Assembly: GCA_964609775.1 (NCBI GenBank)
Contig: CAZSSJ010000001.1
Span: forward strand, 22,858 to 86,857
DNA length: 64,000 nt
Direction of reading: 5' to 3'
Origin: an uncultured Gammaproteobacteria bacterium
Lineage (GTDB): Bacteria; Patescibacteriota; Microgenomatia; JAMCZE01
Position numbers and translations under genes: made by a program. The first letter of the stretch is position 1. Every line of letters begins with the position of its first letter. The notes under the pieces are model-generated. The model searched no databases, had not been told where the DNA came from, and saw only the letters and a program-made list of their open reading frames with translations. Positions 21,924 through 50,299 of this stretch are shown here, piece by piece.

Positions 21924-21971
21924 GCTGGCTTGCCCTGAGCTTGTCGAAGGGTGGATTGTGAATTAACGAAA

Positions 21972-24900
21972 ATGAAACAAATTAGACGGATTAGACTAAT
22001 TGGTCTAATTAGGCCAATTTGGGCAAAAAAATTAGGGATTTTTTTGCTCTCGGCGACGATTATCGTCGCCGGACTGCTCGTTTTCTGGGTGAACAGGAAC
22101 GGGGGGAAGGTCGAGGCGGCGTGGTTTGATGATTCCTGGGGCTACCGGCAGATTATAACTCTCACCAATAACGGGTCGACGCAGACGGATTATCAGGTGC
22201 AGGTGGTGGTGGGGACGGGCGATCTTATTGCCGCGGGGAAGATGCAATCTGACTGCAATGATTTGCGGTTTACGGATCTTTCCGGAAAGGTCCTTTCCTA
22301 TTGGACGGAATATTGCCGGTCAGGGGCGGGGAAAAATTCCTCGGTTTGGGTGACGATTCCCACCCTGACAACGACACCGGCACCTATATATATGTATTAC
22401 GGAAACCCGTCTGCGGCAACGGCGAGCACGTTTCGGTCTTTGCCGACGGGGATTAATTTGGGGGATGGGGCCGATGGGGCGGCGACTGTTTCGGGGACGG
22501 TGAACTTTAATTCGACGACGATTTCCGGACGGACGGAGGCTGATGGAGTCAATCCGGCGTCAACGGTGCTGACGGCGCTGGGGAGCACGACGATTACGGC
22601 GACGGCTGCGGCGGGGCTTTCCGTCGGGGATGAGGTTTTGATTATTAATCTTCAGGGGACGACTTCTGATTACGGAAATGTGGGAAAGTATGAAACGGCA
22701 AGGGTGACGGCGATTAATGGAGCTGTTTTAACTCTTAACCATCCTCTTGTTAATGCCTATGATGGGACGACACAAAAAATCATGGTCCAGCGGGTGCCGA
22801 ACTATTCGAGCGTGACGGTGTGCACGGGCAGCGCCGATCCGGTGGCCGGGTGTGCTTCGGCAGGAACGTTGAATCCTGCATCGTGGTCGAGCGGAAACGG
22901 GACAGGAGGGGTGGTCATGCTACGGGCCACGGGGACGGTGAATGTGGCGGCGTCGGGGAGCATTTCTGGAGCAGGTTTAGGTTATGCGGGAGGGGCGGGA
23001 GGCCCGGCGGGAGCAAAGGGCGGATATGGGGGAGACAGCTATGATGGGGATAATCCGCGAGGCGGATGTGCGGATTCAAGCTGTACGGCCGGGGTGGGTG
23101 GCGGGAAATCTGGGTCGGCGACCGGAGCTTCGCCAAATAGCGGTGGAACCCGCGGTGGAGGCGGCGGAGGGGGATCTGACGGGGCGACTAACGGGACTGG
23201 CGGCGGGGCGGCCGGAGGCGGCGGGGGTTATGGCGGAGGCGGAGGCGGAGGCGGAGCCAATGGTGATGGCTATGTGGCTCTTCCAAGCACTGCGAATGGA
23301 GGAACGGGCGGAAGTGGAGGCTCAACAGGAACTTCTGCGGGTGGTGGAGGAGGGGGTTGCCGGGACAATGATGGTGATAACACAGCCGGGGCCAACGGGG
23401 GAAATGCCGGCAGTGCCGGGTCAAATGGTAGTGCGAGCTGTTCGGGGACGGCAGGCACGGGGGGCGAAGTAGGGTCGGGAGCAACGAGCGGAAGCGGGGG
23501 CGGAGGGGCTGGAGGAGGTCTTGGTTCGGGCGGCGGGGGCGGAGGCGGAGGAACGTATGGCACGGCGGCTTTGACGACAATTTTTTTGGGAAGCGGCGGC
23601 GGGGGCGGTGGAGGGACAACAGCAGGAGTGGACTTTGCCGGAGCAGCCGGGGCGGCAGGCGGAGGAATCGTTTACATCAGTGCCGGGACAGTGACAGTCG
23701 CCGGGGCAGCTTCGGCCAACGGAGCCGATGGGACCACTCCTGACGCGCAAACTGGCAGTGGGGGGGCCGGGGCCGGAGGATCAGTTTTTATTTCAGGAGC
23801 CACAGTGACGCTGGGGAGCAGCTTAGTTTCAGCAACCGGAGGAGCTGCAGGTGCAGCTGATCAGGCAATCGCCGGATCCGGCGGAGGCGGAGTAGGACGG
23901 ATTGCGGTGAATTATTCAACGAGCACCGGTTCGACTAATCCTTCAGCTGGATCCACCTCCACATTGCCGGTCGCCGGGTCGCCATCGACGGAAGAAAAAG
24001 GCAACGGGCCGGTGGCTTTCTGGCACCTTGACGACGGCCAGGGAACAGTAGCCCAAGATTCAACGACGAATGGAAATGCTGGGACACTTTCGGGAACAAC
24101 TCTGCCCAGCTGGCAGACGGAGGACTTGTGCGTTTCGGGCAAGTGTCTCTATTTTAATGGGATTACTTCCAATGTGACGGCGGGGACAGTGAATGCGGTG
24201 CAAACCGTGTCTTTCTGGGTCAGGCCGGCGAGTGTTTCGGCCTCACTGGTGCAGTTGGCAAGCGGGGTCGATGTTAAAGCGGCTTCAGGAGTAGTCGGGA
24301 CTGACGGCTTTACTGCACCGACGATCTATGTCAACGGGGCCAAGGTGACAGGCAGCTCGGCGACGCCGTTTGCAGCCAGTCAATGGAATTTTGTGACGGT
24401 GACGACGGGGACAGGGATTACAGCAAATGCCATTACCTTGGGGAAAATGCAGACGGGAGTGTTAAACGGGTTTTTGGATGAAGTGAAACTCTATCACTAT
24501 GCCCGGAGTGCGGCGCAGGTGAAGGCAGATTATGCCAATTCGGGAATTAATAAAGGGACGGGAAGTGTTCTGGGGGCGGATCCGGATCAAGTGAATCGGA
24601 CGTTATCAAATGGGCTAGTTGGGTATTGGAAGATGGATGAAAGCGGGGCTGGTAGCTGCACAGGCGGAGCCAATGACAGCTGCGATTCATCCGGCAACGG
24701 CAATGACGGCAACTGGGTTAATCAAGCAGCGAACACGGGAGGAAAGTTCGGTAATGGAGTTATCTTTGACGGCGTCAATGACACGGTCGATGTGGCCCAA
24801 TCCAGCAGTCTTAATGGAGTAACCGATGACATTACCGTCTCGGCCTGGATCAAAACCACCGCTACAGGCGGGGGTCTGACCGACAATACATTTATCAGCA

Positions 24901-27900
24901 AAGAGACAGCGGGTTGCGGTTCAGGCTATAGCGACTGGTTTATCCATTTATTAAACGGCACCGTCAAGTTCTGGACATCCGGATCAGAGTGTACGGCCGT
25001 GGCATCCAATGCCACAGTCAATGACGGCAGTTGGCATCTCGTGACCGTGACACGAAAAAGATCAGACGGCAATCATATTATCTATATTGACGGGCAGTAT
25101 GATACTTCAAAAATCGGAAATACCGGTTCAATCGGCAACGCGGAAGATCTTTATTTCGGAACCATAAACGGAACGGCATCAGACTATACCGGTAGTCTCG
25201 ACGAAGTCCGGATCTATAACCGTGTCCTGTCTCCTGCCGAAGTCTCCATTCTTTACCAGTTTGCCGCCGGGCCGGTGGGGTATTGGAAGATGGAGGAAGG
25301 GGCGGGAACAACGGCCGCGGATTCCAGCGGCAATGGCTATACCACGGCGGCATTTACGGGAAACACCGCTTGGACAGCGGGGAAATTTGGCAAAGGGCTG
25401 ACCTTTGACGGAGACGGAGATTACGCCAGCATTACGGATGCTTCCGGAGTAAAGATTGATCTTGGGGCAACGACCGATTCATATACAGTCTCCGGGTGGG
25501 CAAAGACGTCGACCGATGGTTCGGGTAATGCCACGATCGTGGAGAAAAATGATGGATCTGGAGCCTATCCGTTTAGCTTGTATCTGAATTCTTCGGAACA
25601 TGCCTGTTTTCAGATTTCCGACGGGACCAATGCGCCTTCGGCCTGCGGATCGACGGCTTTGAGTGATGGCGCTTGGCATTATCTCACGGGCGTGCGGGAT
25701 GTTGGAGCAGACAAGGTCTATATTTATGTTGACGGGGTGCAGATCAATTCGGCGACGGATTCGACCACGGCCACAGCGGCCAATGGCGATGACACATCAA
25801 TCGGAAACGGCGGAACCTCTTATACAACGAATGATTTTACCGGACAAATTGACGAGGTGAGGATTTACAACTATTCGCGCAGCCCAAAACAAATTATAGA
25901 AGACTTAAATGTCGGGCACCCGACTGGGGGAAGTCCAATCGGCACAGCACATGGCTACTGGAAATTTGATGATGGGCGGGGAACGACAGCTTATGATTCC
26001 GGGGCCAGCCCGAATAATGGAGTTCTAACCAGTATGAACTTAGTGACCTCAGTTGGTATTTCCGGCTGGAACCCGAATGGGAAGTTTAATAAGGCATTAT
26101 CGTTTGACGGGAGCAATGATAACGTGGACTTCGGGGATCTTTCCTACACTGAAGGTGCTTCCAGTTTAAGCTGGAGTTTTTGGGTTAATCCGAATTCGGT
26201 CGCGGCGACGAAGTGTTTGTGGTGTAAATATAATAATGCGGCAACAGAGCGGTCGTGGGCGATTGAAAGCGGAACAACTAATGCTTCGGCGATTAGGGCC
26301 ACGCTGCCAACGAGCACGACGGAAGCGGATGGCACAACATACGGAGAAACACCGACCGGACAACTTAGTGTCGGAGTTTGGACCCACGTGGCAGTGGTCT
26401 ATGACGGAAATGCTTCAGGTAATTTGAACCGGCTGAAGATATATATTAATGGTGTTAAGCAGAATCTGGCTTTTGCCGGGACGATTCCGGCAACGACTCA
26501 GGCCACCACTTCCACGGCTAACGCTGGCGAAAGCTCCGATGGAGCCAGAAATTTTTCAGGCACACTTGATGAGATGAAGATCTACGGCGGGGCGCTGACA
26601 GAGGCTGAAGTGAAGTTGGATTATAACCGAGGGTCGGCAATTTCTTTGGGAGTTTTGGGAACTTCGACGGCCGACGGGAAGACCGCGTCAAGTTCGGCTG
26701 GGTCGGCTTATTGCCTGCCGGGAGATACCACAACGTGTAACCCGCCGGTGGCGGAGTGGCCTTATGAAGAAGGCCAGGGGACGAGCGTGGCTGACACGAG
26801 CGGAAACAACAACACGATGACTCTAAGCGCCGCCAGTCAATGGACGCATGGAGTCATCGGTCGCGGCATCACCTTCAACGGCACGAGCGACACGGCTGAT
26901 TACGGAGATGTGAATAATAAATTTGACAGCGTGACCAAGCTCACGGTGACGGCTTGGTTTAAGAAACCAAGCGTCGGGGGAAAAGTTTATATTGCCACGA
27001 AGGGCAGCGGCGCCAACGCGACACGTTTTGAACTGTCGGCTTTAACTGATGGTTTGATCTATTTTGTTGTCAGAAACGGGGTGTTATCGACAGCGTCCAC
27101 ATATAGCAATGACACGAATTGGCACCATGTGGCGCTGGTTTTTGATGGGACCCAAACGGGCAATGCCAATCGGTTGAAGGGGTTTATTGATGGCACGGCG
27201 CGCGCTCTGACTTTCTCAAACACTGTTCCGAGCTCGACGGGAAACTATGGCACCGCGAAGCTTTATTCCGGCTATCATGAATGGTTTAACCTGTATTCGG
27301 CCGGATATGTTGACCAGATGCGGGTTTTTGATTACCCCTTGACAGCGGCTCAAGTGGCCAACAACTATAACCGCGGCCTGCCTGCATCCTGGTGGAAGTT
27401 TGATGAGTGTCAGGGAACGGTAGCCAATGACTCAATCGCAACCATATCGGGTACGCTAAACGGTGGGACACCGGGAGACTGTAATACCGCAAGTACTGCC
27501 TGGGCCAATGGAAAAACAGGAAAGTTTAATTACTCATTAAAATTTGGCACTACACCCGATCTTACTACAGTGACTTCGACCAGTACGTATCCTTTTAGCC
27601 AAGTCAGCAGCCCTCCGGTATCATGGGGCGGATGGTTTTATCCGACTAGTTCGGTAAACAGTCAGGCATTTATCGATAAAAAGGATCAATTCCGGCTTTA
27701 CACCGACGGATCCGGAAATGCAATCTGCGGGGTGGCAACGGCTGCCGGATCCTACACCGATGCCTCATCGGTGACAGCTCCGATAACCTTAAATACCTGG
27801 AATCATGTACTTTGCACTTATGATGGTACCACTAGCTTGAAAACCTATGTAAATGGAATATTAAAAAATACTTCAACCATCTCTGTCGATATGTTTCTCA

Positions 27901-28067
27901 CGACAACCACATTGTATGTAGGCCAACTCAATGACGCTTCTAACCAGTTTACAGGCCAGGCAGATGATATAAAAATATGGGCATATTCTTTGACTGCTTA
28001 CCAGGTGCGGATGGAGTTTAACCAAAGCAGTGCTGTTAGGTTTGGGCCTAGTTCCGGGGCTCCCTGA
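21972..28067 (+). CDS. DUF2341-domain protein with an N-terminal signal anchor, a long Gly-rich low-complexity region and multiple concanavalin-A-like/LamG (Laminin_G_3-type) domains. The ORF is open from GTG at 21951; ATG at 21972 is the likely start.
   Basis: N-terminal W.YR..I......DYQV.V......D.RFTD..G..LSYW.E......WV.IP.L.....IYMYYGN (DUF2341 signature). Repeated ...DGSWHHV...GSLDEVRIYNR.LS..E... modules, each preceded by WK.DEG.G lectin-type motifs. Confidence 0.75.
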   Translation: MKQIRRIRLIGLIRPIWAKKLGIFLLSATIIVAGLLVFWVNRNGGKVEAAWFDDSWGYRQIITLTNNGSTQTDYQVQVVVGTGDLIAAGKMQSDCNDLRFTDLSGKVLSYWTEYCRSGAGKNSSVWVTIPTLTTTPAPIYMYYGNPSAATASTFRSLPTGINLGDGADGAATVSGTVNFNSTTISGRTEADGVNPASTVLTALGSTTITATAAAGLSVGDEVLIINLQGTTSDYGNVGKYETARVTAINGAVLTLNHPLVNAYDGTTQKIMVQRVPNYSSVTVCTGSADPVAGCASAGTLNPASWSSGNGTGGVVMLRATGTVNVAASGSISGAGLGYAGGAGGPAGAKGGYGGDSYDGDNPRGGCADSSCTAGVGGGKSGSATGASPNSGGTRGGGGGGGSDGATNGTGGGAAGGGGGYGGGGGGGGANGDGYVALPSTANGGTGGSGGSTGTSAGGGGGGCRDNDGDNTAGANGGNAGSAGSNGSASCSGTAGTGGEVGSGATSGSGGGGAGGGLGSGGGGGGGGTYGTAALTTIFLGSGGGGGGGTTAGVDFAGAAGAAGGGIVYISAGTVTVAGAASANGADGTTPDAQTGSGGAGAGGSVFISGATVTLGSSLVSATGGAAGAADQAIAGSGGGGVGRIAVNYSTSTGSTNPSAGSTSTLPVAGSPSTEEKGNGPVAFWHLDDGQGTVAQDSTTNGNAGTLSGTTLPSWQTEDLCVSGKCLYFNGITSNVTAGTVNAVQTVSFWVRPASVSASLVQLASGVDVKAASGVVGTDGFTAPTIYVNGAKVTGSSATPFAASQWNFVTVTTGTGITANAITLGKMQTGVLNGFLDEVKLYHYARSAAQVKADYANSGINKGTGSVLGADPDQVNRTLSNGLVGYWKMDESGAGSCTGGANDSCDSSGNGNDGNWVNQAANTGGKFGNGVIFDGVNDTVDVAQSSSLNGVTDDITVSAWIKTTATGGGLTDNTFISKETAGCGSGYSDWFIHLLNGTVKFWTSGSECTAVASNATVNDGSWHLVTVTRKRSDGNHIIYIDGQYDTSKIGNTGSIGNAEDLYFGTINGTASDYTGSLDEVRIYNRVLSPAEVSILYQFAAGPVGYWKMEEGAGTTAADSSGNGYTTAAFTGNTAWTAGKFGKGLTFDGDGDYASITDASGVKIDLGATTDSYTVSGWAKTSTDGSGNATIVEKNDGSGAYPFSLYLNSSEHACFQISDGTNAPSACGSTALSDGAWHYLTGVRDVGADKVYIYVDGVQINSATDSTTATAANGDDTSIGNGGTSYTTNDFTGQIDEVRIYNYSRSPKQIIEDLNVGHPTGGSPIGTAHGYWKFDDGRGTTAYDSGASPNNGVLTSMNLVTSVGISGWNPNGKFNKALSFDGSNDNVDFGDLSYTEGASSLSWSFWVNPNSVAATKCLWCKYNNAATERSWAIESGTTNASAIRATLPTSTTEADGTTYGETPTGQLSVGVWTHVAVVYDGNASGNLNRLKIYINGVKQNLAFAGTIPATTQATTSTANAGESSDGARNFSGTLDEMKIYGGALTEAEVKLDYNRGSAISLGVLGTSTADGKTASSSAGSAYCLPGDTTTCNPPVAEWPYEEGQGTSVADTSGNNNTMTLSAASQWTHGVIGRGITFNGTSDTADYGDVNNKFDSVTKLTVTAWFKKPSVGGKVYIATKGSGANATRFELSALTDGLIYFVVRNGVLSTASTYSNDTNWHHVALVFDGTQTGNANRLKGFIDGTARALTFSNTVPSSTGNYGTAKLYSGYHEWFNLYSAGYVDQMRVFDYPLTAAQVANNYNRGLPASWWKFDECQGTVANDSIATISGTLNGGTPGDCNTASTAWANGKTGKFNYSLKFGTTPDLTTVTSTSTYPFSQVSSPPVSWGGWFYPTSSVNSQAFIDKKDQFRLYTDGSGNAICGVATAAGSYTDASSVTAPITLNTWNHVLCTYDGTTSLKTYVNGILKNTSTISVDMFLTTTTLYVGQLNDASNQFTGQADDIKIWAYSLTAYQVRMEFNQSSAVRFGPSSGAP

Positions 28068-28104: not shown

Positions 28105-28201
28105 GCTCGACAGCTGAGGGTGAATGTTGTTTTCAGCTCGCGGCTGCGGGCCTAAACCAAGGAAGCGCAGTTAGATTTGGACCCAATACGGGGGCGCCTT
28201 A
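28105..28201 (+). pseudogene. Orphan 3'-terminal remnant duplicating the last ~30 codons of the upstream LamG gene (…ECCFQLAAAGLNQGSAVRFGPNTGAP*)
   Basis: Translation in frame gives NQGSAVRFGPNTGAP-stop, against NQSSAVRFGPSSGAP-stop at 28020..28067. Confidence 0.6.
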
Positions 28202-29320
28202 AGTTAGAAATTCAGAAAAGTTTTCTTTGGTGACCGGGGTCCAGGTGGAGTTAGGATAGGTTTGACGCCAGGTCACTGGAGGAGAGTTTCTGCTCTTTTG
28301 CCATTTGATTTCAAAGGCGTTAAGAGTTCCTTGGGATTCTTCAATATAGTCGATTTCTTGTTTAGACCAGGTTCTCCAGAAATAAGTGTTTGGGGTTAAA
28401 CCGAGATTGCCGTTTCTTTTGAATCTTTCGGTGATAAGGAAATTTTCCCAGAGGGCGCCAGTATCGGAGCGCAGTGCAAGAGGGTTAAAGTTGTTGATGA
28501 TTGCATTTCTGATGCCGGTGTCCCAGAAGTATATCTTCCGAGATTTGTTAATTTCTTTTCTTAGGTTCCTTGAGAGTGGAGGAAGACGGAATATCACAAA
28601 AGCCAACTCAAGAAGTCTCGTGTAGGAAGAGATAGTTTCCTTGTCTACCTCGAGAAGGTTGGCCAGCTCGGTGAAATGGACCTCGCTGCCAATTTGGAGA
28701 GCGAGGGCTTGCAGAAGCTTTTCTAAAAGCTCTGGTGCTTTTAGTTGACGGTATTCTAAGGAATCTTTATAAAGGTAGTTTTTGTAGATCGATTTGATGG
28801 TTTCCTCGGCGGACTGCCCTCCCAGGCTGACAATTTCCGGGTAGGAACCATAGATCATTCTTGTTTCTAGAAGTCTAGCTGTTTCGATTTGGTCAGGATA
28901 GATTTCGGCCAGTGAGAGCGGGCTGAGGATAAACTCATAAGTGCGGCCGGTTAAGGGCTCCTTAATTTTATTGGAAAGATCGAAAGAGCTGCTACCCGTG
29001 GCAATTACTTGCAGCTTGGGGGCGTTATCGACAAGGAGTTTGAGGGTTAGTCCGATGTTTAGCACTCTTTGGGCTTCGTCGATGATGACGAGTTTGTTTT
29101 TGCCGATTAAGCTTTTGAGTTCAGAGGAGGTTTTGTCCGTGAGAGCTCTTCTTACATCTGGTTCGTCACAGTTTAAATAAGAACTTTCTTCGGGGAATTT
29201 CTTCTTAATCTCTTGGACTAGAGTGGTTTTGCCCACCCGTCGCGGGCCGTAAATTATGATTACCTTTCCTCTAAAGAGGTGGTCTTCAATTCGTGGCTGG
29301 ATTGATCTCTTAAATAGCAT
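28199..29320 (-). CDS. AAA+ ATPase of the AAA_14 + DUF4143 family
   Basis: Walker A GPRRVGKTTL and Walker B VIIDEAQ; 373 aa; own TTGACA-17-TAGTAAT promoter and AGGAGA RBS upstream (about 29330..29370). Confidence 0.8.
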   Translation of the reverse strand: MLFKRSIQPRIEDHLFRGKVIIIYGPRRVGKTTLVQEIKKKFPEESSYLNCDEPDVRRALTDKTSSELKSLIGKNKLVIIDEAQRVLNIGLTLKLLVDNAPKLQVIATGSSSFDLSNKIKEPLTGRTYEFILSPLSLAEIYPDQIETARLLETRMIYGSYPEIVSLGGQSAEETIKSIYKNYLYKDSLEYRQLKAPELLEKLLQALALQIGSEVHFTELANLLEVDKETISSYTRLLELAFVIFRLPPLSRNLRKEINKSRKIYFWDTGIRNAIINNFNPLALRSDTGALWENFLITERFKRNGNLGLTPNTYFWRTWSKQEIDYIEESQGTLNAFEIKWQKSRNSPPVTWRQTYPNSTWTPVTKENFSEFLT

Positions 29321-29618: not shown

Positions 29619-32600
29619 TTGAAAAAACATCTAAGCTTAATCATCTTCTTTGTCTTCATCTTTTCAGGCTTTTTCGTGTTTGCGCCGGCGCCGCTTTGGG
29701 CTTCCGGGGCGACCTATTATGTGGCGACTTCCGGCAGTGACACTAATTCCGGCACGCAAAGTGCGCCCTGGGCCACGCTCCAAAAAGCCCTCGGGAGCAT
29801 TTCCTCCGGCGACATGGTCATCATCCGCGGAGGCATCTATCGTCAGCCCGGCAGCATGATTGGCTACCCCTACAAATCCTTCGGCCCAGCCGGAACGGCG
29901 GGCAATTTGACCACCTTCAAATCTTATCCCGGAGAACGAGTTATCATCACCGGTCCAAACAACGACCTTATCCAAATTGCCGTTGCCGACTATGTTCGGA
30001 TTGACAGCCTCTGGTTTGGCGGGGATTATGTCACCGGTATCAAAGGTCCGGTGTTTCAAATTTCCGGCGTCGGCAAAGAAATTGTCAACAACACCTTTTT
30101 CAATTGGCCCTCGGGCCCGCTGATGGGTTGGGGAGAAAACGTCCTTTTTCAAGGAAATCGGCTCGTCAACACCGGCCGGGATGTGCACACCGCGGGAACC
30201 TATTTCTCTTCGGGATATGCGACTGACGGAAAGTTGTCTAATCACATCATTGCTGACCACAACATCTACATTGGCAACAACATTTCCGCCGGTTATGGCT
30301 TCCAGTTTTGGCATGGCGGCAAGTCCATGATCGCGACCCGAAACTTTGTGGCCGGTCATTCCTGGGGGAGCGCCATAGACGGAGACAGCCAGCTGTGGGC
30401 TAATAATTTTTATTGGAAGCAAACCGGAAAAGATTCAGACATTGACACCGTCATTAATCCCTATGGTCCTCTGTCCGGTGGTTCTAATCAAAAGTATATC
30501 AATAATATCTTTGGGCCCTCCGCCTGGTTTTATTATGCTAACGCCTGGAAAGCCACTCAGGCAGAAATCGATACCAAACTATCTAATAATGCTTTCACTG
30601 ACGATCCCTCCTATCTGCCGGGATCCGGTGGTCCCACCTGTAAAAAGCCCTGCGGAGTAAGTCCATACGTCTTTCATCAAGGGCAAGAAAGTGCGGAAAT
30701 TGGTATCAGTGCGGCAGCTCTGGATAAGGCAGTTGGGACAATCAGTCAGGCTTTTCTAAACCCGCTGGACACTATCTATAGCGACACCACGGTTGAATCA
30801 AGTTTTCAACAGATTCGCTCGGCGCAAGTTCCAACCACGAGCCCCCTATACCGTAAAGGACTGCCTTGGTTCGGACAAGCCATCGACATTGGCTGGAACG
30901 TTCCGGCGCCAGCCTCCGTTTGCGACTATTGGGCCGCTTTCACCAAGCTTGGTCTCAAGCACTATGATAAATACGGTAGTGTTCTTCCTGACTATTCCTG
31001 CACTAGTCCTACACCACCTCCGCCGCCACCGCCACCACCGCCGCCGTCGACAGTGACGGGCGACGTTAATGGTGACGGCAAGGTTGATTTTGCCGACCTC
31101 CAAGCCCTGCTCTTAAACATCCTGGGGACAGTCACGGCGCAACTTGATCTCATTGTCGATGGCAAAATTAATTCGTTGGACTTTGCCGTTTCCTCGGGAG
31201 AAATCATTAATGCTAATCCGCCGCCGCCCGGCGACACTCAAGCTCCAGTCACTGTCATCACCGCGCCAGCTGGTGGTCAAACGGTCAGTGGGACTTTTTC
31301 CGTCGTGGCGAGCGCGACGGATAACGTCGGGGTGACAAAAGTGGAGTTCTATATTGACGGGGCGATTAAAAACACTGACACGGGTGTTCCCTACGGATTT
31401 AATCTGGACACGACCCAACTGACTAATGCCGCGCACACGGTTTATTCCAAGGCCTATGACGCTGCCGGCAACGTAGGGAGCTCATCAAGCATCACTTTCA
31501 CGGTCAGCAACACCGCCCCGCCGCCCCAAACCATGACTTTGAATTTGTCCTCGTATTTTGGCGGCTCGGGTGAAGACAGTGCTCGCGACGTGGTCACCGA
31601 TTCCCAAGGCAATGCCTACGTGGTGGGCGGCCTGGGATCAGCAACGATCCAGACAACCCAAACTTTTAAAAAAACCGGTACCTGCGCTGTTTCCTGGACG
31701 GGTAACGGCGGCAAGGACATGGACGCCTATGTCATGAAAATCAGCCCGACTAACCAGCTTGTCTGGTCAACCAGGATCGGCGGGCCGTGCTATGACCGGT
31801 CGTATGGCGTGGAGCTCGATTCCTCGGGAAACATCTACTTGACCGGCCGGGCCGGGCCGAATTTCCCCACGACCAGCGGGACTTTCCAGCCGGGTTTCTA
31901 CGGCTTTAATTCCGGCAGCGCCTATGGTGAGCAGAACGCTTTTGTGGCCAAAGTTTCCCCAACGGGAGCTCTTGTTTGGGCGAGCTACGTCGGCTCGACA
32001 GACGGCAACCGGGACATCGCCGTTGACGGCAGTGGGGATGTCTATATTGGCACCGGCTTTAATTCGGCGACGCAAAAGCCACTAAGCGGGCTTGCCTGGT
32101 TTAGCTCGGCCATTAGCAAGGCTTTTCAAGTGGTGAACAATCGCGGTTTTGAGGGCTTGATTGTCAAAATTAAGTCTGACGGGTCGCAGGTGGTGTGGGC
32201 CAGTTTCTACGGCGGCACGGGTAATGAGGGAGCCACGCCGTCAATCAGAGTGGATAGGAACGGCTACGTTTATTACCTCACCAACACAACTTCGACTAAT
32301 CTGCCCGTAAAAAACGCTTTCAAATCGACTCTCGGGGGGACGATCGACATGGCCCTCGTTAAATTCCATTTTGACTCGGGGGTGGGGAAACTGGTCACCG
32401 ACTATTCGACCTATTTTGGCGGCAGTGATGTCGAGTTTACCGAAACCCACGGTCTGGCCGTGGACGTATCGGGAAACGCCTATATAGCCGCGACCACCAA
32501 ATCTACGAACCTGACGACGACCACGGGGGCTTACCAACGAACCTATGGCGGCTCAGGGGGAAGCGGAAACTATCCGGGGGACGGCTTTGTGGCGAAATTT

Positions 32601-32993
32601 TCCCCCACGGGGACACTTCTTTCGGCCACCTATCTGGGGGGGTCCTCAGGGGAGGGCCTGGAGGGCACGGCCCTTGATTCTTCGGGTAATGTCTTTGTCT
32701 CGGGGGCGACCTATTCAACAAACTTCCCGACGAGTTCCGGAGCCTTTCAAACAAGTAATAAGGGCAGAGCTGACGTTTTTGCGGCGAAACTTTCGCCGGA
32801 TCTCAAAAGTCTTCTTTTCAGCACCTACCTGGGCGGCACGGGCGATGACCTGGGTCGGTCAGCAACGGTCGATTCTGCGGGCAACTTCCTGGTGGTGGGA
32901 CTCGAATATTCTTCCAATTTGCCGACGAAAAGTGCTTTCCAGATAACCTATGGGGGAGCCGGGGATGAGTTAATTTCTAAATTTGGTCCTTAA
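29619..32993 (+). CDS. Secreted multidomain protein (TTG start): signal peptide; right-handed parallel beta-helix (pectate-lyase-like) domain; poly-Pro linker; dockerin-like repeat (GDVNGDGKVDFADL...DGKINSLDFA); bacterial Ig-like domain; C-terminal SBBP beta-propeller repeats.
   Basis: MKKHLSLIIFFVFIFSGFFVFAPAPLWASG; beta-helix NxxGxxxxG repeats; PPPPPPPPPPPPS; dockerin Ca-binding loop motif; repeated D.SGN.Y..G.T.S.N.PT..GA.Q units. Confidence 0.75.
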   Translation: MKKHLSLIIFFVFIFSGFFVFAPAPLWASGATYYVATSGSDTNSGTQSAPWATLQKALGSISSGDMVIIRGGIYRQPGSMIGYPYKSFGPAGTAGNLTTFKSYPGERVIITGPNNDLIQIAVADYVRIDSLWFGGDYVTGIKGPVFQISGVGKEIVNNTFFNWPSGPLMGWGENVLFQGNRLVNTGRDVHTAGTYFSSGYATDGKLSNHIIADHNIYIGNNISAGYGFQFWHGGKSMIATRNFVAGHSWGSAIDGDSQLWANNFYWKQTGKDSDIDTVINPYGPLSGGSNQKYINNIFGPSAWFYYANAWKATQAEIDTKLSNNAFTDDPSYLPGSGGPTCKKPCGVSPYVFHQGQESAEIGISAAALDKAVGTISQAFLNPLDTIYSDTTVESSFQQIRSAQVPTTSPLYRKGLPWFGQAIDIGWNVPAPASVCDYWAAFTKLGLKHYDKYGSVLPDYSCTSPTPPPPPPPPPPPSTVTGDVNGDGKVDFADLQALLLNILGTVTAQLDLIVDGKINSLDFAVSSGEIINANPPPPGDTQAPVTVITAPAGGQTVSGTFSVVASATDNVGVTKVEFYIDGAIKNTDTGVPYGFNLDTTQLTNAAHTVYSKAYDAAGNVGSSSSITFTVSNTAPPPQTMTLNLSSYFGGSGEDSARDVVTDSQGNAYVVGGLGSATIQTTQTFKKTGTCAVSWTGNGGKDMDAYVMKISPTNQLVWSTRIGGPCYDRSYGVELDSSGNIYLTGRAGPNFPTTSGTFQPGFYGFNSGSAYGEQNAFVAKVSPTGALVWASYVGSTDGNRDIAVDGSGDVYIGTGFNSATQKPLSGLAWFSSAISKAFQVVNNRGFEGLIVKIKSDGSQVVWASFYGGTGNEGATPSIRVDRNGYVYYLTNTTSTNLPVKNAFKSTLGGTIDMALVKFHFDSGVGKLVTDYSTYFGGSDVEFTETHGLAVDVSGNAYIAATTKSTNLTTTTGAYQRTYGGSGGSGNYPGDGFVAKFSPTGTLLSATYLGGSSGEGLEGTALDSSGNVFVSGATYSTNFPTSSGAFQTSNKGRADVFAAKLSPDLKSLLFSTYLGGTGDDLGRSATVDSAGNFLVVGLEYSSNLPTKSAFQITYGGAGDELISKFGP

Positions 32994-32997
32994 ATCT

Positions 32998-34257
32998 ATG
33001 ATAAATTTAACTATGCCACAAATGCCAGAGCGCTTTTCCAGGTCCGGAGTTATTCCGATTAAACTTGTTATTCTCCTTTTATTGCTGGCGCTGCCGCTGC
33101 TGCTTCTGGCGTTGAACTCGAAGACGAATCTTTTAGGCCTGGCTGGAGCTTCGGCCAACCTGGCAGTCTATCCGGCCACCCAAGCTAATGTGGTCGTCGG
33201 GGACCCCGTCTCTTTCACTGTTTCGCTGACGACCGGTGGGGCCAGCGTCCGGGGAGCGGACGTGATCATTAACTACGACAAGACAAAGTTGGCTCTGGTG
33301 GACATTACGCCCAATGACGCTTCCTTTAAAACCTTTGGCCCGCAAACCGCCGGGGGAGTCTTCGATGCTTCTCGGGTTATCAGTGTGGCCAGTCAAAGCG
33401 GCCGGATTGAGTTTAGCTCTTTGGCCTTTGATCCGTCGCAATCAGGTAACGGTCAGCAAGGCTTGACGGCGCTTTTTAACGGCACGACGACGCTAGTCAA
33501 TCTCAAGTTCCTGGCGCTCTCCGCCGGCAGCAATATTCCCCTGACTTTTGGCTACACCGCCAGCAGCACGACCGATTCGAATGTGGCTCTGGACGGCGGC
33601 CAGGACGTCTTGGGCTCGGTCACAAACGCCGCGATTACGATTGTCAATCCCACGGTCCAAGATAGCCAGGCTCCAACAACAGCGGTGACGACGCCAACGG
33701 CCGACCAAACAGTGGCCGGGACGGTGATCCTTGCCGCCACAGCCACAGACAACGTGGGGGTGACAAAAGTGGAGTTTGTCCTGGACGGAGCGGTCAGGGG
33801 TTCGGACACCACTTCTCCCTACACTCTTTCCTGGGACTCAAAGACGGTTTCGGACGGCAGCCACTCCGTCCTGACCAAAGCCTATGACGCGGCCGGCAAT
33901 GTGGGCACTTCGCCAGCTATTAGCTTTAAAGTGGTTAACACGGTTGTGAGCAAGACGATGAGAGTGAGCCAGATTGTTTATGAAGTCCGCGGCCAAAAGC
34001 TTGATGATGGGGTTCTGGTTGTCGATGCGGCCGGCAAGGGGCTGGGCGGAGCCCTGGTTTCCCGAACGGTGACTAACGAGGCCCAGACTCTGACCTATAA
34101 ACTCTCTTCCAAAACGGCGACTAACGGTTGGACCGGCTCAACCATCACCAAAAAAGCCGCCCCGGGGTGCTATTCGGAGAAAATCACCGCCGTCACTCTC
34201 TCCGGCTACACCTTTGATGGTGTTACTCCGCAAAACCAATATTGCACCAAGAGGTAG
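32998..34257 (+). CDS. Cohesin-domain protein with an Ig-like domain. N-terminal TM/signal anchor. The ORF is open from 32983.
   Basis: LAVYPATQANVVVGDPVSFTVSLTTGGASVRGADVIINYDKTKLALVDI (cohesin-type pattern); the Ig-like segment TATDNVGVTKVEF.LDGA...DT..PY is shared with the upstream dockerin protein. Confidence 0.6.
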   Translation: MINLTMPQMPERFSRSGVIPIKLVILLLLLALPLLLLALNSKTNLLGLAGASANLAVYPATQANVVVGDPVSFTVSLTTGGASVRGADVIINYDKTKLALVDITPNDASFKTFGPQTAGGVFDASRVISVASQSGRIEFSSLAFDPSQSGNGQQGLTALFNGTTTLVNLKFLALSAGSNIPLTFGYTASSTTDSNVALDGGQDVLGSVTNAAITIVNPTVQDSQAPTTAVTTPTADQTVAGTVILAATATDNVGVTKVEFVLDGAVRGSDTTSPYTLSWDSKTVSDGSHSVLTKAYDAAGNVGTSPAISFKVVNTVVSKTMRVSQIVYEVRGQKLDDGVLVVDAAGKGLGGALVSRTVTNEAQTLTYKLSSKTATNGWTGSTITKKAAPGCYSEKITAVTLSGYTFDGVTPQNQYCTKR

Positions 34258-34273
34258 AAAGTTAGCCTATGAT

Positions 34274-36073
34274 ATGAGGCAAGAGAGAGCCTTTAGAAAG
34301 AGATTGTTTTGGAGGCGGGGTTTGACTTCAGTTCTGGCGCCGGTGGCTCTTTTTTTGGTTTTGATTCTGGGAGTGGTGGCGATTAATTTCGGGCTGAATT
34401 CATCAACGAGTCCGGAGCCACGAGCCGACGGAGGGACAAATGTCGTTGTGACCGGAACAGTGCAGCGGTCGCCATGGCTGCGGCTGCGGAAACCGGACTA
34501 TCGGCTGGTCAAGACGGATAATGGCAAGGACTACTATTTGACCACGACCAGCACGGGAATTAATCTCCGGACCTATGAGGGGAAAAAAGTCGTTGTGACA
34601 GGGACGGAGACAACGACGGCTAAGTGGGGGCTGACGCTGTTTGTCAAGGACATTAAGGTGTTTGTGGCCCCGCCGCCACCATATCCGGCGCAGAAGAAGG
34701 TGGACACCTCAAAGACGGTGATGTATCAAGTGTGGTTGAATTATTACGCCCAGAATGTCTCCGAGGATCAGCCGTCGATGGTGGTGTTTGAGAATGCGGC
34801 CCGGAGGTTGCCGGACCTGGCGAAGATGGGCGTGACCACAATTCAGCTTTCGCCGGTGCACCCGTTTTTGTCAGGGACGACCATTGGGTCGCCATATGGT
34901 TCACGGGACTACTATGACGTCAATCCGGGTTATGCCGGGTTCACAAATCCACAAACCGATCCGGGAACGAAAAGTGAGCGGATCGCCGCCTTTAAAAAAT
35001 ATGTTGAGGCGGCCCACGGTCAGGGGATGAAGGTGATCATGGACTGTGTCTATCACAGCACCGATGCCCGCAATGTTCTGGTGGCGGCGTATCCGGAATA
35101 TTACAAACATAATGCCGACGGCCGTTTTGTCCAGAATCAATACGGGTTTTATGTTTTGGACTACGCTCAATCCGAGCTTGTCGACTATATGATTTCGATG
35201 GTGAAATACTGGAAACAGACGGTGGGAGTGGACGGGTGTCGGGCGGACGTGGCGACGATGGTGCCGCTTGCTTTCTGGGCAGCCTTAAATAACGAGATGA
35301 AAAAGATTGATCCCGGGTGGCTCATGATTGCGGAAACGACAGCAAATCTGGTTTCGTATAGCGGGCCGTACAGCGGTCCGGGATATAAGGGGGAAACGTA
35401 TGACAAGATCTATGGTTTTGACGGGATATATGGGGTGACTTATATGCTGGCTTCACGGGCGATTCTTAACGGAAGTCGCATGGCTGATGTCCTGGAGACG
35501 GCCTGGGAGTTTCCGCAAAACGGCACGGCAGCGGTTCCGGGAGGAATTTTTTACCGGTCGGTGGACAATCATGATCAGCGGCCAAGAGCAACGCTTCTGG
35601 CTGGAGGGAATGCCGGGATGGTGGCTTCGGTGGCGGTCAACTTGACGCTTGACGGGATTCCGTTTATTTTTAATGGCCAGGAGATCGGGGATGTGGCGCC
35701 GACGAGCATTGCGGTTCAAAGATTTATTTCCTGGAGTCATCCGCTTGCACCCCAGAATGGAGAGGCTTTTGAGAAACTGATTTCACTTCGACGAAATCGT
35801 CCGGCTTTAAACAGCGGGACGACAGTTTGGCTTGATAATTCAAATCCGGCAGGAGTTGTGTCGTATGTCAGGCAGAGCGGGAGTGACCGGGTGTTGGTGG
35901 TGGCGAATCTTTCGGGGACAGACTGGAGCGGAACGGTGAGCGGAACAACGGGAGCAAGCCTTAGTGGCCAGGGAAAAGATCTCATCTCCGGTCTGAGCGT
36001 GTCTTCGGCGGTTAACAACGTGATGACGCTTTCACTCCCGGCCTATTCTTATGTTGTTATCCAAATTCAGTAG
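34274..36073 (+). CDS. GH13 alpha-amylase-family glycoside hydrolase, membrane-anchored or secreted. The ORF is open from TTG at 34214; ATG at 34274 lies after the upstream stop.
   Basis: GH13 conserved regions: QLSPVHPF...GYAGF, KVIMDCVYHST, GVDGCRADVA (catalytic Asp), FNGQEIG, VDNHDQ. Confidence 0.8.
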   Translation: MRQERAFRKRLFWRRGLTSVLAPVALFLVLILGVVAINFGLNSSTSPEPRADGGTNVVVTGTVQRSPWLRLRKPDYRLVKTDNGKDYYLTTTSTGINLRTYEGKKVVVTGTETTTAKWGLTLFVKDIKVFVAPPPPYPAQKKVDTSKTVMYQVWLNYYAQNVSEDQPSMVVFENAARRLPDLAKMGVTTIQLSPVHPFLSGTTIGSPYGSRDYYDVNPGYAGFTNPQTDPGTKSERIAAFKKYVEAAHGQGMKVIMDCVYHSTDARNVLVAAYPEYYKHNADGRFVQNQYGFYVLDYAQSELVDYMISMVKYWKQTVGVDGCRADVATMVPLAFWAALNNEMKKIDPGWLMIAETTANLVSYSGPYSGPGYKGETYDKIYGFDGIYGVTYMLASRAILNGSRMADVLETAWEFPQNGTAAVPGGIFYRSVDNHDQRPRATLLAGGNAGMVASVAVNLTLDGIPFIFNGQEIGDVAPTSIAVQRFISWSHPLAPQNGEAFEKLISLRRNRPALNSGTTVWLDNSNPAGVVSYVRQSGSDRVLVVANLSGTDWSGTVSGTTGASLSGQGKDLISGLSVSSAVNNVMTLSLPAYSYVVIQIQ

Positions 36074-36357: not shown

Positions 36358-37566
36358 ATGCAAGCCTTAATTGAAACCTACCATCGTTTACTTTCGGAAA
36401 TAGTACCGTCCTACTGGCGCCGGTTCTATGACGAGTTTGTCATGGATAGCCGGATGGTCGGCATTGTTGGGGCAAGAGGGGTGGGAAAGACCACGTTTCT
36501 TGTTAGCTATCTGCGGGAACACTACGGCGGTTCGGACAGGTCACTCTACGTCTCGGCGGACAACCTCTATTTTGTGGAGCATACTTTGATTGAAGTGGCG
36601 GATCAATTTGTCAAGGACTTCGCCGGGGAGATTTTGTGCATTGACGAGATTCACCGCTATAGGAATTGGAATCAGGAACTGAAAAATATTTACGACTCCT
36701 ACCCTAAACTGTCAGTAATATTTTCAGGGAGTTCGAGTGTTGATCTGGTGAAAGGGAAGTATGATCTATCCCGCCGGGCTAACTTGAAAACGATGTATGG
36801 CTTTTCCTTCCGGGAATATCTGGAGGTTTGGGAGAAAGCTAAATACCCGATTCTGACGCTGGCGGAAATTCGCACTAATCACACGATGTATGCTCAGGAA
36901 TTAATGAAGACGCCAAAAATCCTTGGTTATCTGAAACAGTATCTTAAGGGAGGTTACTACCCGACGTTTTTGGAAATGGGGAGCTACGGCGCCTATCAAA
37001 GCAGCCTGCGGGGGATTATTGACAAGATTATCTTTGAAGATATCAGTAGTTTTTATTCTTTAAATACCTCTAATTTGGACACTCTTAAGAAGATAATTTA
37101 TTTCTTTGGGACTGCCCAGCCCGGGACTGTTAACATCAACCGCCTGGCCGGAAGTTTAAAGAAGGACTATACCACAATTGCGGAGTATGTGCAGATTTTA
37201 AGAGATACCGGACTTCTTCGTTTTCTCCGGCGGAACAAACAAGGCCATGCTTTAGTGCGGGATGCAGAAAAGATTTATCTGGACAATCCGAATCTCCTTT
37301 ACGCTGTTAATCAGGAGGTAGGGAAGGAGCCACTGGTTGGAGTTTCGCGGGAGCTCTTTGTGATTGGCAGTTTGGAAAACGCAGACTACCACGTGTTTTT
37401 TTCTGAGGCGGCGGACGTTGAATGCGACGGGCACCTTTTTGAGATTGGGGGGAAGAACAAAACCGCCTCGCAGTTGAAAGGGAAAGAAGGATATTTAATT
37501 AGTGATGATGTCCTTGTTGGCGACTCCAGAACCATTCCCCTTTATTTGTTTGGGTTTTTGTCTTAA
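36358..37566 (+). CDS. AAA+ ATPase, AAA_14 + DUF4143 family (second, divergent copy)
   Basis: GARGVGKTTFL Walker A, ILCIDEIH Walker B; sigma70-like promoter TTGACT-17-TAATAT at about 36310..36340. Confidence 0.8.
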   Translation: MQALIETYHRLLSEIVPSYWRRFYDEFVMDSRMVGIVGARGVGKTTFLVSYLREHYGGSDRSLYVSADNLYFVEHTLIEVADQFVKDFAGEILCIDEIHRYRNWNQELKNIYDSYPKLSVIFSGSSSVDLVKGKYDLSRRANLKTMYGFSFREYLEVWEKAKYPILTLAEIRTNHTMYAQELMKTPKILGYLKQYLKGGYYPTFLEMGSYGAYQSSLRGIIDKIIFEDISSFYSLNTSNLDTLKKIIYFFGTAQPGTVNINRLAGSLKKDYTTIAEYVQILRDTGLLRFLRRNKQGHALVRDAEKIYLDNPNLLYAVNQEVGKEPLVGVSRELFVIGSLENADYHVFFSEAADVECDGHLFEIGGKNKTASQLKGKEGYLISDDVLVGDSRTIPLYLFGFLS

Positions 37567-37736: not shown

Positions 37737-38414
37737 TTATTTTAGGATTTGGGGTCTTAAGCTTCGGGCGAGGGATTCATAGAATTTCTCCATGGCTTTT
37801 TGGTCAAAGGGGACGAGCATTTTGGGAAGATTCGTTATTTCCGCGGCCTTGAGGAAGCTTTGGGCCGTTTTAATAGTGTCTGTGGTGACGACGAATTTTT
37901 GGTCAGCACTGGTGAGGAGATCGGCTGCTGTCCAGTTTGTTTCTTTGATAATTAAGTAGAGGTCGACGTAATCTCGTTCACGGGCTTTGGTGCGGATCGT
38001 GTGGATCTTGTTGACGGCAATGTCGTAGAGGCTATCAATTTCGAGGCCGCGCCACCTGATTCCCGGTTTTAGACGGTTGAAGGAGTAGTGGTTAAAGTCG
38101 ACCTTGAAACGGCTGTTGTCAGGGTAGCGGAAGAAATATGTGTAGAAACCAAGGTCGTCATCGACGCTAACGTGACGGTATTCGAGGATACTTTGATTCC
38201 TTTTGATCCATTCAGTAACACGGTCGCCATTAAAGGAGCGATCGGTGAAGAAATCCAAATCGTAGGATTCCCGGTGGTGGAGGTACCAGCTGGCCAGACC
38301 GGTGCCGCCGCTTAAGTAGAAGTTATCGAGGAGATATTTTTCCTGAAGTACCAGGTCCAGAAATTGCTTCTGTCGAAGGCTAAGTCCTTCTCCTTGCGCC
38401 AGGGTTTGTTCCAT
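37737..38414 (-). CDS. AbiEii/AbiGii-like nucleotidyltransferase (type IV TA toxin family)
   Basis: FYLSGGTGLASWYLHHRESYDLDFF motif (GGTAL...HR.S.DLD). Confidence 0.7.
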   Translation of the reverse strand: MEQTLAQGEGLSLRQKQFLDLVLQEKYLLDNFYLSGGTGLASWYLHHRESYDLDFFTDRSFNGDRVTEWIKRNQSILEYRHVSVDDDLGFYTYFFRYPDNSRFKVDFNHYSFNRLKPGIRWRGLEIDSLYDIAVNKIHTIRTKARERDYVDLYLIIKETNWTAADLLTSADQKFVVTTDTIKTAQSFLKAAEITNLPKMLVPFDQKAMEKFYESLARSLRPQILK

Positions 38415-39116: not shown

Positions 39117-39389
39117 ATGCTTATGCTTAACTGGTCCACTGACGAAAAAGCCTTCAAGAAAAAAGACCCTAAGGGCTACAAATTGTGGAGGTTAACTCAG
39201 CTCATAAACTTCGGTCTTGACGGGGAAAAACTGTCGGAAAAAGAAGTCAGAAAAGCCTGGCCGAAGATCAAGGACAGGCTCGATCCCTACAAGGGCCGTT
39301 TGCTGGAGTTTCTTATATGGGGAAAACAATACTCACTCCCAAACAATATCAGTTTCTGGAACTGGCCGCTGCCGACCCAAAAATCGTAG
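39117..39389 (+). CDS. Small conserved partner protein (paralog of 38312..38608)
   Basis: About 45% identity to the other copy; overlaps the downstream NTase gene by 72 nt. Confidence 0.55.
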   Translation: MLMLNWSTDEKAFKKKDPKGYKLWRLTQLINFGLDGEKLSEKEVRKAWPKIKDRLDPYKGRLLEFLIWGKQYSLPNNISFWNWPLPTQKS

Positions 39390-39991
39390 CGAATTTCTAT
39401 CTCACTGGCGGCACGGCTCTGTCAGAATTTTATCTCCACCACCGCCTCTCTGAAGACATCGATCTTTTTTGCCCGAAAGAAGAAGTCGATCAAAAATTCG
39501 TAGAAATTTTCCTCAAAAAAATCTCACCAAAGATGGCAATCCAATATCTCCGCCCGACCGTATTCTTGGGTCTTGTCAGTTACAAATTGGTCTTCACGGA
39601 CAAAACAGAATTGAAAGTAGATTTTAACTATTACCCTTTCCTCCAAATCGATAGTGGTACCAAATTTAATAATCTGAGTGTCGACAGCCTTTATGATATT
39701 GCGGCAAACAAACTGCACACTCTTTTTATGAGACCACGATCGCGCGATTACGTGGATCTTTATTTTATTCTCCAGCAAGAAAATTATCCGTTAGAAAAGC
39801 TGATAATCGACGCCAAAATCAAGTTCGACTGGCACATTGATAACACGACTCTCGCCAGTCAATTCTCAAGAGTGCAAGATTTAGTTTCAACCGATTTACC
39901 AAAAATGCTCGTTCCTTTTGATCAAGAAAAGATGGAAAAATTTTTTCTTGATCTGGCGAAATCGCTCAAAGGAAAGATATTTAAAGAGTGA
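39317..39991 (+). CDS. AbiEii/AbiGii-like nucleotidyltransferase (second copy)
   Basis: FYLTGGTALSEFYLHHRLSEDIDLF motif. Confidence 0.7.
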   Translation: MGKTILTPKQYQFLELAAADPKIVANFYLTGGTALSEFYLHHRLSEDIDLFCPKEEVDQKFVEIFLKKISPKMAIQYLRPTVFLGLVSYKLVFTDKTELKVDFNYYPFLQIDSGTKFNNLSVDSLYDIAANKLHTLFMRPRSRDYVDLYFILQQENYPLEKLIIDAKIKFDWHIDNTTLASQFSRVQDLVSTDLPKMLVPFDQEKMEKFFLDLAKSLKGKIFKE

Positions 39992-50262: not shown

Positions 50263-50299
50263 GTTTTAGTTATTGAGTGTTTATATTAAAATAATTGGT

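Follow-up and report, generated by a model that had tools for sequence, protein, structure and literature searches.

This report concerns two adjacent genes in a window of 64,000 nucleotides (64 kb; the whole stretch of DNA analysed, to which all positions refer unless another locus is named) from a candidate phyla radiation (CPR) bacterium. The first gene encodes a secreted protein with a dockerin module (protein 1) and the second a protein with a cohesin module (protein 2). Both modules are real, and on balance we favor the view, built on sequence comparison, that they constitute a non-cellulosomal, one-to-one cohesin-dockerin pair, the predicted binding of which would display a pectate-lyase-like β-helix/β-propeller protein. 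The idea of a matched pair gains indirect support from related CPR loci, nine of ten of which carry a dockerin next to a cohesin. The first-pass annotation of this DNA had suggested such a pair as a minimal system for tethering enzymes to the surface. The adjacency of the two genes and the conserved synteny speak for the tether; the gathering of enzymes finds no such backing, the neighboring hydrolases being without dockerins.

The source organism is an ultra-small groundwater CPR bacterium (Candidatus Gottesmanbacteria / Microgenomates), and protein 2 matches proteins of Microgenomates group bacterium GW2011_GWA1_48_10 and of Candidatus Gottesmanbacteria bacterium RIFCSPHIGHO2_01_FULL at 100% identity. 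The two genes belong to a tightly packed, co-directional trio that is completed by a gene of glycoside hydrolase family GH13. The stop codon of protein 1 is separated from the ATG of protein 2 by 4 nucleotides, and the stop codon of protein 2 from the ATG of the GH13 gene by 16. The genes for proteins 1 and 2 are probably co-transcribed; the GH13 gene is probably co-transcribed as well, but its product is not a dockerin cargo. Promoter and terminator scans between 28 and 37 kb gave no excess above shuffled sequence. The features of proteins 1 and 2 are listed below, with the evidence for each; ORF, HMM, and AF2 stand for open reading frame, hidden Markov model, and AlphaFold2, and Ig for immunoglobulin.

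29619..32993, + strand: gene for protein 1, 1124 aa; ORF with Pfam matches to SBBP, Big_7, and Dockerin_1; TTG start with GGAG 8 nucleotides upstream
29619..29702, + strand: predicted signal peptide MKKHLSLIIFFVFIFSGFFVFAPAPLWA, with S after the cut; read from the sequence, cleavage site inferred
29706..30998, + strand: N-terminal right-handed β-helix, pectate/rhamnogalacturonan-lyase (PL9)-like; Pfam, NCBIfam, and PDB matches
31014..31046, + strand: Pro11 linker; read from the sequence
31050..31208, + strand: dockerin module, aa 478-530; Pfam Dockerin_1, PDB sequence matches, alignment, local HMM (E 3e-9), AF2
31062-31097, + strand: dockerin loop 1, DVNGDGKVDFAD, aa 482-493; canonical
31146-31181, + strand: dockerin loop 2, DLIVDGKINSLD, aa 510-521; Ile at ligand position 3
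31245..31442, + strand: Big_7 Ig-like domain of protein 1, aa 543-608; Pfam, E 1e-16
31536..32990, + strand: C-terminal SBBP β-propeller region; Pfam SBBP in five stretches, E 9e-22; CylK propeller in the PDB, E 9e-11
32998..34257, + strand: gene for protein 2, 419 aa from the probable ATG at 32998, the ORF opening with TTG at 32983; UniRef "Cohesin domain-containing protein"
33052..33114, + strand: N-terminal hydrophobic segment IPIKLVILLLLLALPLLLLAL, signal-anchor or signal peptide; hydropathy scan
33145..33672, + strand: cohesin module, aa 55-230; homologues, profile against the PDB, AF2, Foldseek
33673..33870, + strand: Big_7 Ig-like domain of protein 2; Pfam, E 5e-18
33943..34254, + strand: C-terminal domain of protein 2, probably an Ig-like β-sandwich; weak Big_1 match of 21.4 bits, under the cut-off of 34.9

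The dockerin and cohesin modules

The duplicated calcium-binding segment that had been read as a dockerin in the 1124-aa protein 1 is borne out by Pfam Dockerin_1 (PF00404): aa 481-523 score 27.7 bits (E 3e-6), above the cut-off of 22.9. PDB sequences similar to it are mostly dockerins. The best is that of Clostridium perfringens NagH (2jnk/2ozn, E 1.4e-5), with both halves aligned, and it is followed by dockerins of C. thermocellum and C. cellulolyticum, with a few lower-scoring EF-hand proteins interspersed. In an alignment of 31 sequences, made up of protein 1 and 30 other dockerins taken from the search matches of the present analysis, both loops have Asp at positions 1 and 12 without exception. 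Loop 1 is complete, with D, N, D, D, and D at ligand positions 1, 3, 5, 9, and 12; the corresponding residues of loop 2 are D, I, D, N, and D, and two other family members carry Thr at its position 3. An AF2 model of a 70-aa segment has the order loop-helix-loop-helix, with helices at residues 21-32 and 49-62 and a predicted local distance difference test score (pLDDT) of 71. The top Foldseek match of this model is a C. cellulolyticum dockerin (2vn5_B) with a probability of 0.97, but at E 0.03 and a template-modeling (TM) score of 0.4-0.5, with EF-hand proteins interleaved; because of the low TM-score and the pLDDT, the fold is counted as weak support only. Taken together, the dockerin of protein 1 is real. 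The linker in front of it, previously given as 12 prolines, is a run of 11.

The remainder of protein 1 would be the cargo. Its β-helix exceeds the cut-off of Pfam Pel9A-like_beta_helix narrowly and in its N-terminal part only (25.9 bits against 25.2), and NCBIfam PelN matches aa 26-75. In the PDB it matches the PL9 rhamnogalacturonan lyase 5olq and the GH120 xylosidase 3vst (E 4e-5), and chondroitinase B weakly.

The cohesin of protein 2 is also real, although Pfam alone would be insufficient to establish it. The two Pfam searches that had been suggested as a check came out differently, Dockerin_1 lying above its cut-off and Cohesin (PF00963) below it, at 19.8 bits against 24.1 and over profile positions 9-59 of 139 only. 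Homologues were sought with the cohesin domain alone (aa 55-230), a full-length query being swamped by Big_7 matches. Among 1.8 billion cluster representatives, 358 representative homologues were found at E ≤ 0.001; the same query found no relative in the GTDB species genomes. Pfam Cohesin is matched at E ≤ 0.001 by 42 of the 100 best full-length homologues, the best at 4.6e-36. A profile of 34 family sequences retrieved 24 PDB sequences at E ≤ 1, nearly all of them cohesins, the best being the type II cohesin of Acetivibrio cellulolyticus ScaB (E 1.2e-5). Solved cohesins are β-sandwiches with a nine-stranded jelly-roll fold. The AF2 model, computed on the family alignment, has a pLDDT of 94.6 and a predicted TM-score (pTM) of 0.88, and when it is compared with the PDB by Foldseek, the first 48 matches are without exception cohesins (types I, II, and III; lowest E 2e-9, highest target TM 0.79), including the non-cellulosomal cohesins of C. 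perfringens and Archaeoglobus. The earlier claim that the gene next to that of protein 1 encodes a cohesin-like module is thus confirmed by profile, model, and fold comparison. UniRef lists the exact protein as "Cohesin domain-containing protein," under which NCBI also lists homologues from Ca. Paceibacterota and the Patescibacteria group.

For the C-terminal domain of protein 2, our searches returned no homologues, and no wall or membrane anchor was recognized in it. The protein ends in ...QNQYCTKR, with no C-terminal sorting signal, and Pfam found no S-layer homology (SLH) repeats in it. A sortase gene lies ~8 kb beyond the window.

Proteins 1 and 2 each contain an Ig-like domain, and the two copies had been described as almost identical. 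They are ordinary Big_7 domains, 53% identical over 98 aa. Since unrelated proteins are up to 65% identical to the copy in protein 2, this degree of identity is unremarkable; one of the GH26 proteins in the window bears a Big_7 domain too.

Related loci and the proposed tether

Ten independent loci with homologous cohesins were picked by the length of their contigs and without regard to their neighbors, and all of their ORFs were scanned with dockerin and cohesin HMMs. In nine of them, either the cohesin gene has a dockerin gene beside it on the same strand, in most cases immediately upstream, or one chain carries both modules. Carbohydrate-binding modules are abbreviated CBM in the list of these nine.

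L001: one chain with cohesin and dockerin, followed by another cohesin gene
L003: CBM6/35 with half dockerin, then cohesin with CBM60
L004: Metallophos with dockerin, then cohesin, then cohesin
L006: dockerin, then cohesin, then dockerin, then cohesin, then cohesin
L007: TIG with dockerin, then half dockerin, then cohesin
L008: LamG with dockerin ... cohesin with fn3 and dockerin, then cohesin with PG_binding_1
L010: cohesin with fn3 and dockerin, then cohesin, then LamG with dockerin
L011: dockerin, then half dockerin, then cohesin with TIG
L012: dockerin, then cohesin, then cohesin

The same-strand neighbor layout of the window recurs in L003, L004, L006, L007, L010, L011, and L012, and a single chain carries both modules in L001, L008, and L010. 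In the tenth locus (L009) no dockerin was found, and an M23 peptidase gene lies upstream of the cohesin gene. Dockerins occur in 8 of the 21 immediate non-cohesin neighbors of cohesin genes as against 4 of the 83 other genes (odds ratio 12, Fisher p = 2e-4), and all four of the latter sit ≤2.4 kb from a cohesin gene. Both HMMs proved specific: unrelated control loci totaling 536 kb, obtained from a genome scan with aa 1-627 of protein 1, yielded one half-dockerin match and no cohesin at E < 0.01, with one marginal match at 0.016. The recurrent arrangement of dockerin gene and then cohesin gene across CPR appears to be undescribed.

Judged by its sequences, the cohesin family gives the impression of a modular kit made up of anchors, adaptors, and cargo. 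An N-terminal hydrophobic segment is present in 189 of 196 members, 72 join a dockerin to the cohesin in a single chain, and 25 have a C-terminal hydrophobic, transmembrane-like end. Two homologues, P0283 and P0284, contain PG_binding_1, and the gene for P0284 directly follows a dockerin gene. All six homologues that are named by organism are from CPR/Patescibacteria (Gottesmanbacteria, Microgenomates, Paceibacterota, Patescibacteria group, ACD aquifer bins). The half dockerins of the list are second halves of the module (HMM positions ~30-58, with one calcium loop) and end proteins encoded beside cohesins (L003, 3753-6134; L007, 6838-7947; L011, 4769-5884); such single-loop forms may be a distinct variant.

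In the one-to-one scheme that we favor, proteins 1 and 2 would both be exported via the Sec pathway, and the N-terminal segment of protein 2 would keep that protein on the cell. With calcium bound, the dockerin of protein 1 would plug into the cohesin of protein 2, and the PL9-like β-helix and propeller would thereby be displayed on the surface of the epibiotic cell. There they could be carbohydrate-active or adhesive, binding or cleaving glycans. The GH13 amylase, which has a hydrophobic N-terminal segment of its own, would stand outside any complex.

A number of observations count against this scheme. The dockerin of protein 1 is internal, between the Pro11 linker and Big_7, and the dockerins of the related loci are C-terminal. 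Position 3 of its second loop is normally Asn or Asp, and because of the Ile found there the second calcium site may be weakened. Its model is of moderate confidence (pLDDT 71) and the fold matches are weak (TM about 0.4). The only recognized anchor of protein 2 is the N-terminal segment, which is followed by an A-S-A motif, so that cleavage is possible. No close relative of protein 1 with the same architecture was found in the genome scan with aa 1-627, which returned 37 loci, nearly all through the Big_7 motif; the sole long match, in L035 (Saccharibacteria), comprises the β-helix N-cap and Big_7 only and is without dockerin or cohesin. The ten comparison loci are a non-random sample. Finally, ~78 kb of the genome was covered (the window and its flanks), and other partners may therefore exist.

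This last point leads to the strongest of the alternatives, in which the modules are real but are not each other's partners: each would bind a cohesin or dockerin encoded elsewhere, or a structure of the host cell, and their adjacency would reflect a shared "surface protein island." The modular family, promiscuous in its architecture, lends itself to this explanation, as does the limited stretch of genome covered. Networks are possible because 72 of the 196 members combine dockerin and cohesin in one chain and several loci have two or three cohesins and two dockerins; the cohesin of L009, which has no dockerin neighbor, fits as well. We nevertheless consider it unlikely, given the same-strand adjacency of dockerin and cohesin in nine of ten loci, enriched 12-fold over the other genes there, and given that the window and its flanks contain no other candidate partner.

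A second alternative is that one or both modules have decayed or been re-purposed, the dockerin serving as a calcium-binding linker and the cohesin fold as a spacer, adhesin, or carbohydrate-binding β-sandwich, with no contact between them. It would account for the missing position-3 ligand of loop 2, the internal location of the dockerin, and the Pfam Cohesin score under the cut-off, and the cohesin jelly-roll does resemble the folds of CBMs and adhesins, the CLIPPER adhesin domain appearing at Foldseek rank 49. Decay is hard to reconcile, however, with the retention of the helix pattern and of all four Asp residues at positions 1 and 12 of both loops, or with a cohesin family that is clearly conserved across 358 representatives, and the synteny with dockerin genes speaks for an interaction that has been kept. 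We regard this explanation as distinctly improbable.

Neighboring hydrolases and the wider locus

The first-pass annotation had placed a GH13 amylase after the cohesin gene and GH26-type hydrolases at 49-53 kb. Both are present, the latter as two GH26 genes at 49195-53257; the features of the GH13 gene are as follows.

34274..36073, + strand: GH13 α-amylase-family gene; Pfam Alpha-amylase and Malt_amylase_C, NCBIfam
34322-34390, + strand: N-terminal hydrophobic segment of the GH13 protein; read from the sequence

The cellulosome-like setting in which these enzymes had been placed is another matter. Neither regular-expression nor HMM searches found a dockerin in the GH13 protein or in either GH26 protein, each of which has an N-terminal hydrophobic segment of its own. 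Over all six frames of the window there is exactly one dockerin, by regular-expression scan and by dockerin HMM, and exactly one match to the cohesin HMM. A further ~14 kb of flanking sequence from the source contig contains no other cohesin and, as regards dockerins, one single-loop half match to the HMM only. A scaffoldin with several cohesins is absent from the 64 kb and the flanks; the one cohesin protein has no CBM, and no SLH domain was found. With a single cohesin and a single complete dockerin in ~78 kb, and hydrolases without dockerins, the cellulosome-like framing is unsupported: the locus is not a cellulosome, and the only candidate cargo is the β-helix/SBBP protein 1 itself.

It is accordingly very improbable that the cohesin protein serves as the scaffold of a minimal cellulosome-like multi-enzyme system for the GH13, GH26, and protease-like enzymes, a reading that can point to the GH13 gene in the same apparent operon and to the two GH26 genes and an M64-like gene 13-20 kb away, but that is largely refuted by the lack of dockerins on hydrolases with hydrophobic N termini of their own, by the one-to-one count of the modules, by the absence of a CBM on the cohesin protein and of a multi-cohesin scaffoldin, and by the unrelated housekeeping and defense-type genes that lie between the trio and the GH26 pair.

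The half match in the flank is an uncalled 95-aa ORF (L050, 14531-14815, - strand; E 4e-7, HMM positions 1-26), ~1.3 kb past the 3′ end of the window and between two called genes; it is probably spurious or a remnant. The M64-like protease reported previously is a weak match, at 19.5 bits against a cut-off of 26. Its region (53302-55594, - strand) consists of two overlapping ORFs of 343 and 479 aa in different frames. The same stretch is one gene of 756 aa in another assembly of the same organism (L050, 2523-4793), and a single-frame translation of it in the window has 16 stops; the split may reflect a frameshift or a difference between assemblies.

The trio is bracketed by genes for AAA_14/DUF4143 ATPases (28199-29320, - strand, and 36358-37566, + strand), beyond which is a pair of paralogous genes of ~225 aa and unknown function (37737-38414, - strand, and 39317-39991, + strand). 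The trio and these flanking genes may together make up a variable island. A 2038-aa protein that contains DUF2341, six Laminin_G_3 domains, Toxin_R_bind_N, and a long stretch rich in Gly is encoded upstream of the dockerin gene (21951-28067, + strand), one of the ATPase genes (on the minus strand) lying in between. This LamG/DUF2341 protein is without a dockerin; similar proteins in L008 and L010 end in one and flank cohesin genes.

Further upstream is an ORF of 5325 aa (5946-21923, + strand). Its N-terminal part has a MerR/HTH_17 DNA-binding domain (aa 13-58), and matches to Intein_splicing/Hint/PT-HINT, six or more of them, are distributed along its length (E 3e-44 and 1e-54 for its two halves). 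Such a giant multi-Hint protein is unusual, and in another assembly of the same organism (L051) it is called as two genes, of 551 aa (MerR) and at least 4832 aa (Hint/intein). GC skew is positive in 31 of 32 2-kb bins of the window and cumulates to +5.9, in agreement with the location of nearly all large genes on the + strand. It recalls the strand composition disparity that a paper about a Microgenomates genome (PMC7143001) names in its title.

Significance and comparison with known systems

Cohesin and dockerin are a known kind of module pair, and the cohesin had already been named by automatic annotation. What is new is the recurrence of the dockerin-then-cohesin arrangement. CPR bacteria, whose genomes are tiny, spend their lives attached to other cells. 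For their large surface proteins, a conserved cohesin-dockerin gene pair would offer a concrete and testable mechanism of attachment, made of modules that are small, soluble, and open to assay in vitro without cultivation. A divergent clade of such pairs could also be mined for orthogonal protein connectors. For the window, the one-to-one reading corrects the annotation: a probable tether of this kind should not be taken as a sign of cellulosomes or of complexed polysaccharide degradation in CPR.

More tentatively, cohesin-dockerin docking could be a general modular system of surface display in CPR/Patescibacteria, with anchors, adaptors, and cargo encoded side by side; we put this forward as a possibility short of an expectation. 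Anchoring would fall to small cohesin proteins, secured through a membrane helix at the N- or C-terminus or through a domain that binds peptidoglycan, and proteins with both cohesin and dockerin would act as adaptors. The cargo would consist of large dockerin-tagged proteins with LamG, fn3, TIG, CBM, metallophosphatase, or β-helix domains, giving an envelope-attached coat of adhesins and enzymes by which epibionts would hold and feed on host cells. If this is true, the pair in the window is one instance of an undescribed, phylum-wide system.

The cohesins of cellulosome scaffoldins (CipA, ScaA, ScaB; types I, II, and III) are homologous to the module of protein 2. The highest scores of the family profile are with type II cohesins, those of A. 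cellulolyticus ScaB and C. thermocellum SdbA, and the helices inserted in the sandwich of the model (residues 75-85 and 97-102) are reminiscent of type II. The likeness does not extend to the system: unlike scaffoldins and their partners, the locus has neither multiple cohesins nor CBM3, and it lacks the X-module-dockerin dyad, a set of dockerin-bearing carbohydrate-active enzymes, and cellulases.

Closer in phylogeny are the "cohesin domain-containing" proteins of Patescibacteria and the dockerin-domain protein SEML1_0315 of Southlakia epibionticum, an essential protein of the envelope (Wang et al. 2023, PMC10633639). They share with the pair described here the phylum-level group and the module families, but amount to automatic names or to a single remark. 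The tables of that paper (PMC10633639) annotate no cohesin next to SEML1_0315, which was the sole mention of a dockerin in Patescibacteria found by our literature search; the search found no paper on cohesin-dockerin gene pairs in CPR.

The NagH/NagJ toxin complex of C. perfringens (PDB 2ozn, 2jnk) and the Archaeoglobus fulgidus cohesin (PDB 2xdh) resemble the pair in that their modules join secreted proteins outside cellulose degradation. The cohesins of the two organisms are found at Foldseek ranks 19, 30, 33, and 35, and the NagH dockerin has the same short spacing between loops as that of protein 1. In C. perfringens, however, the modules reside on large glycoside-hydrolase toxins that bind one another, without a small cohesin gene next door, whereas protein 2 is a small, separate cohesin protein encoded downstream of the dockerin gene, an arrangement that recurs in CPR loci. 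That such modules are "classically clostridial or ruminococcal," as had been remarked of this locus, overlooks the known wide spread of non-cellulosomal examples; Peer et al., writing in FEMS Microbiol Lett in 2009, are said to have reported them from all three domains of life.

Functionally, the nearest known counterparts of the pair are OlpA and OlpC, single-cohesin anchoring proteins from C. (Acetivibrio) thermocellum. These two are attached to the Gram-positive wall by SLH repeats and bind cellulosomal enzymes. The OlpC cohesin (from the cohesin-dockerin complex PDB 4dh2) is among the best Foldseek matches of the protein 2 model, at ranks 6 and 15, with 13% sequence identity. The pair differs in having an N-terminal hydrophobic segment only and no SLH repeats, in a cargo that is not a cellulase, and in belonging to a CPR bacterium; the likeness is that one cohesin per protein would tether one dockerin protein to the cell surface.

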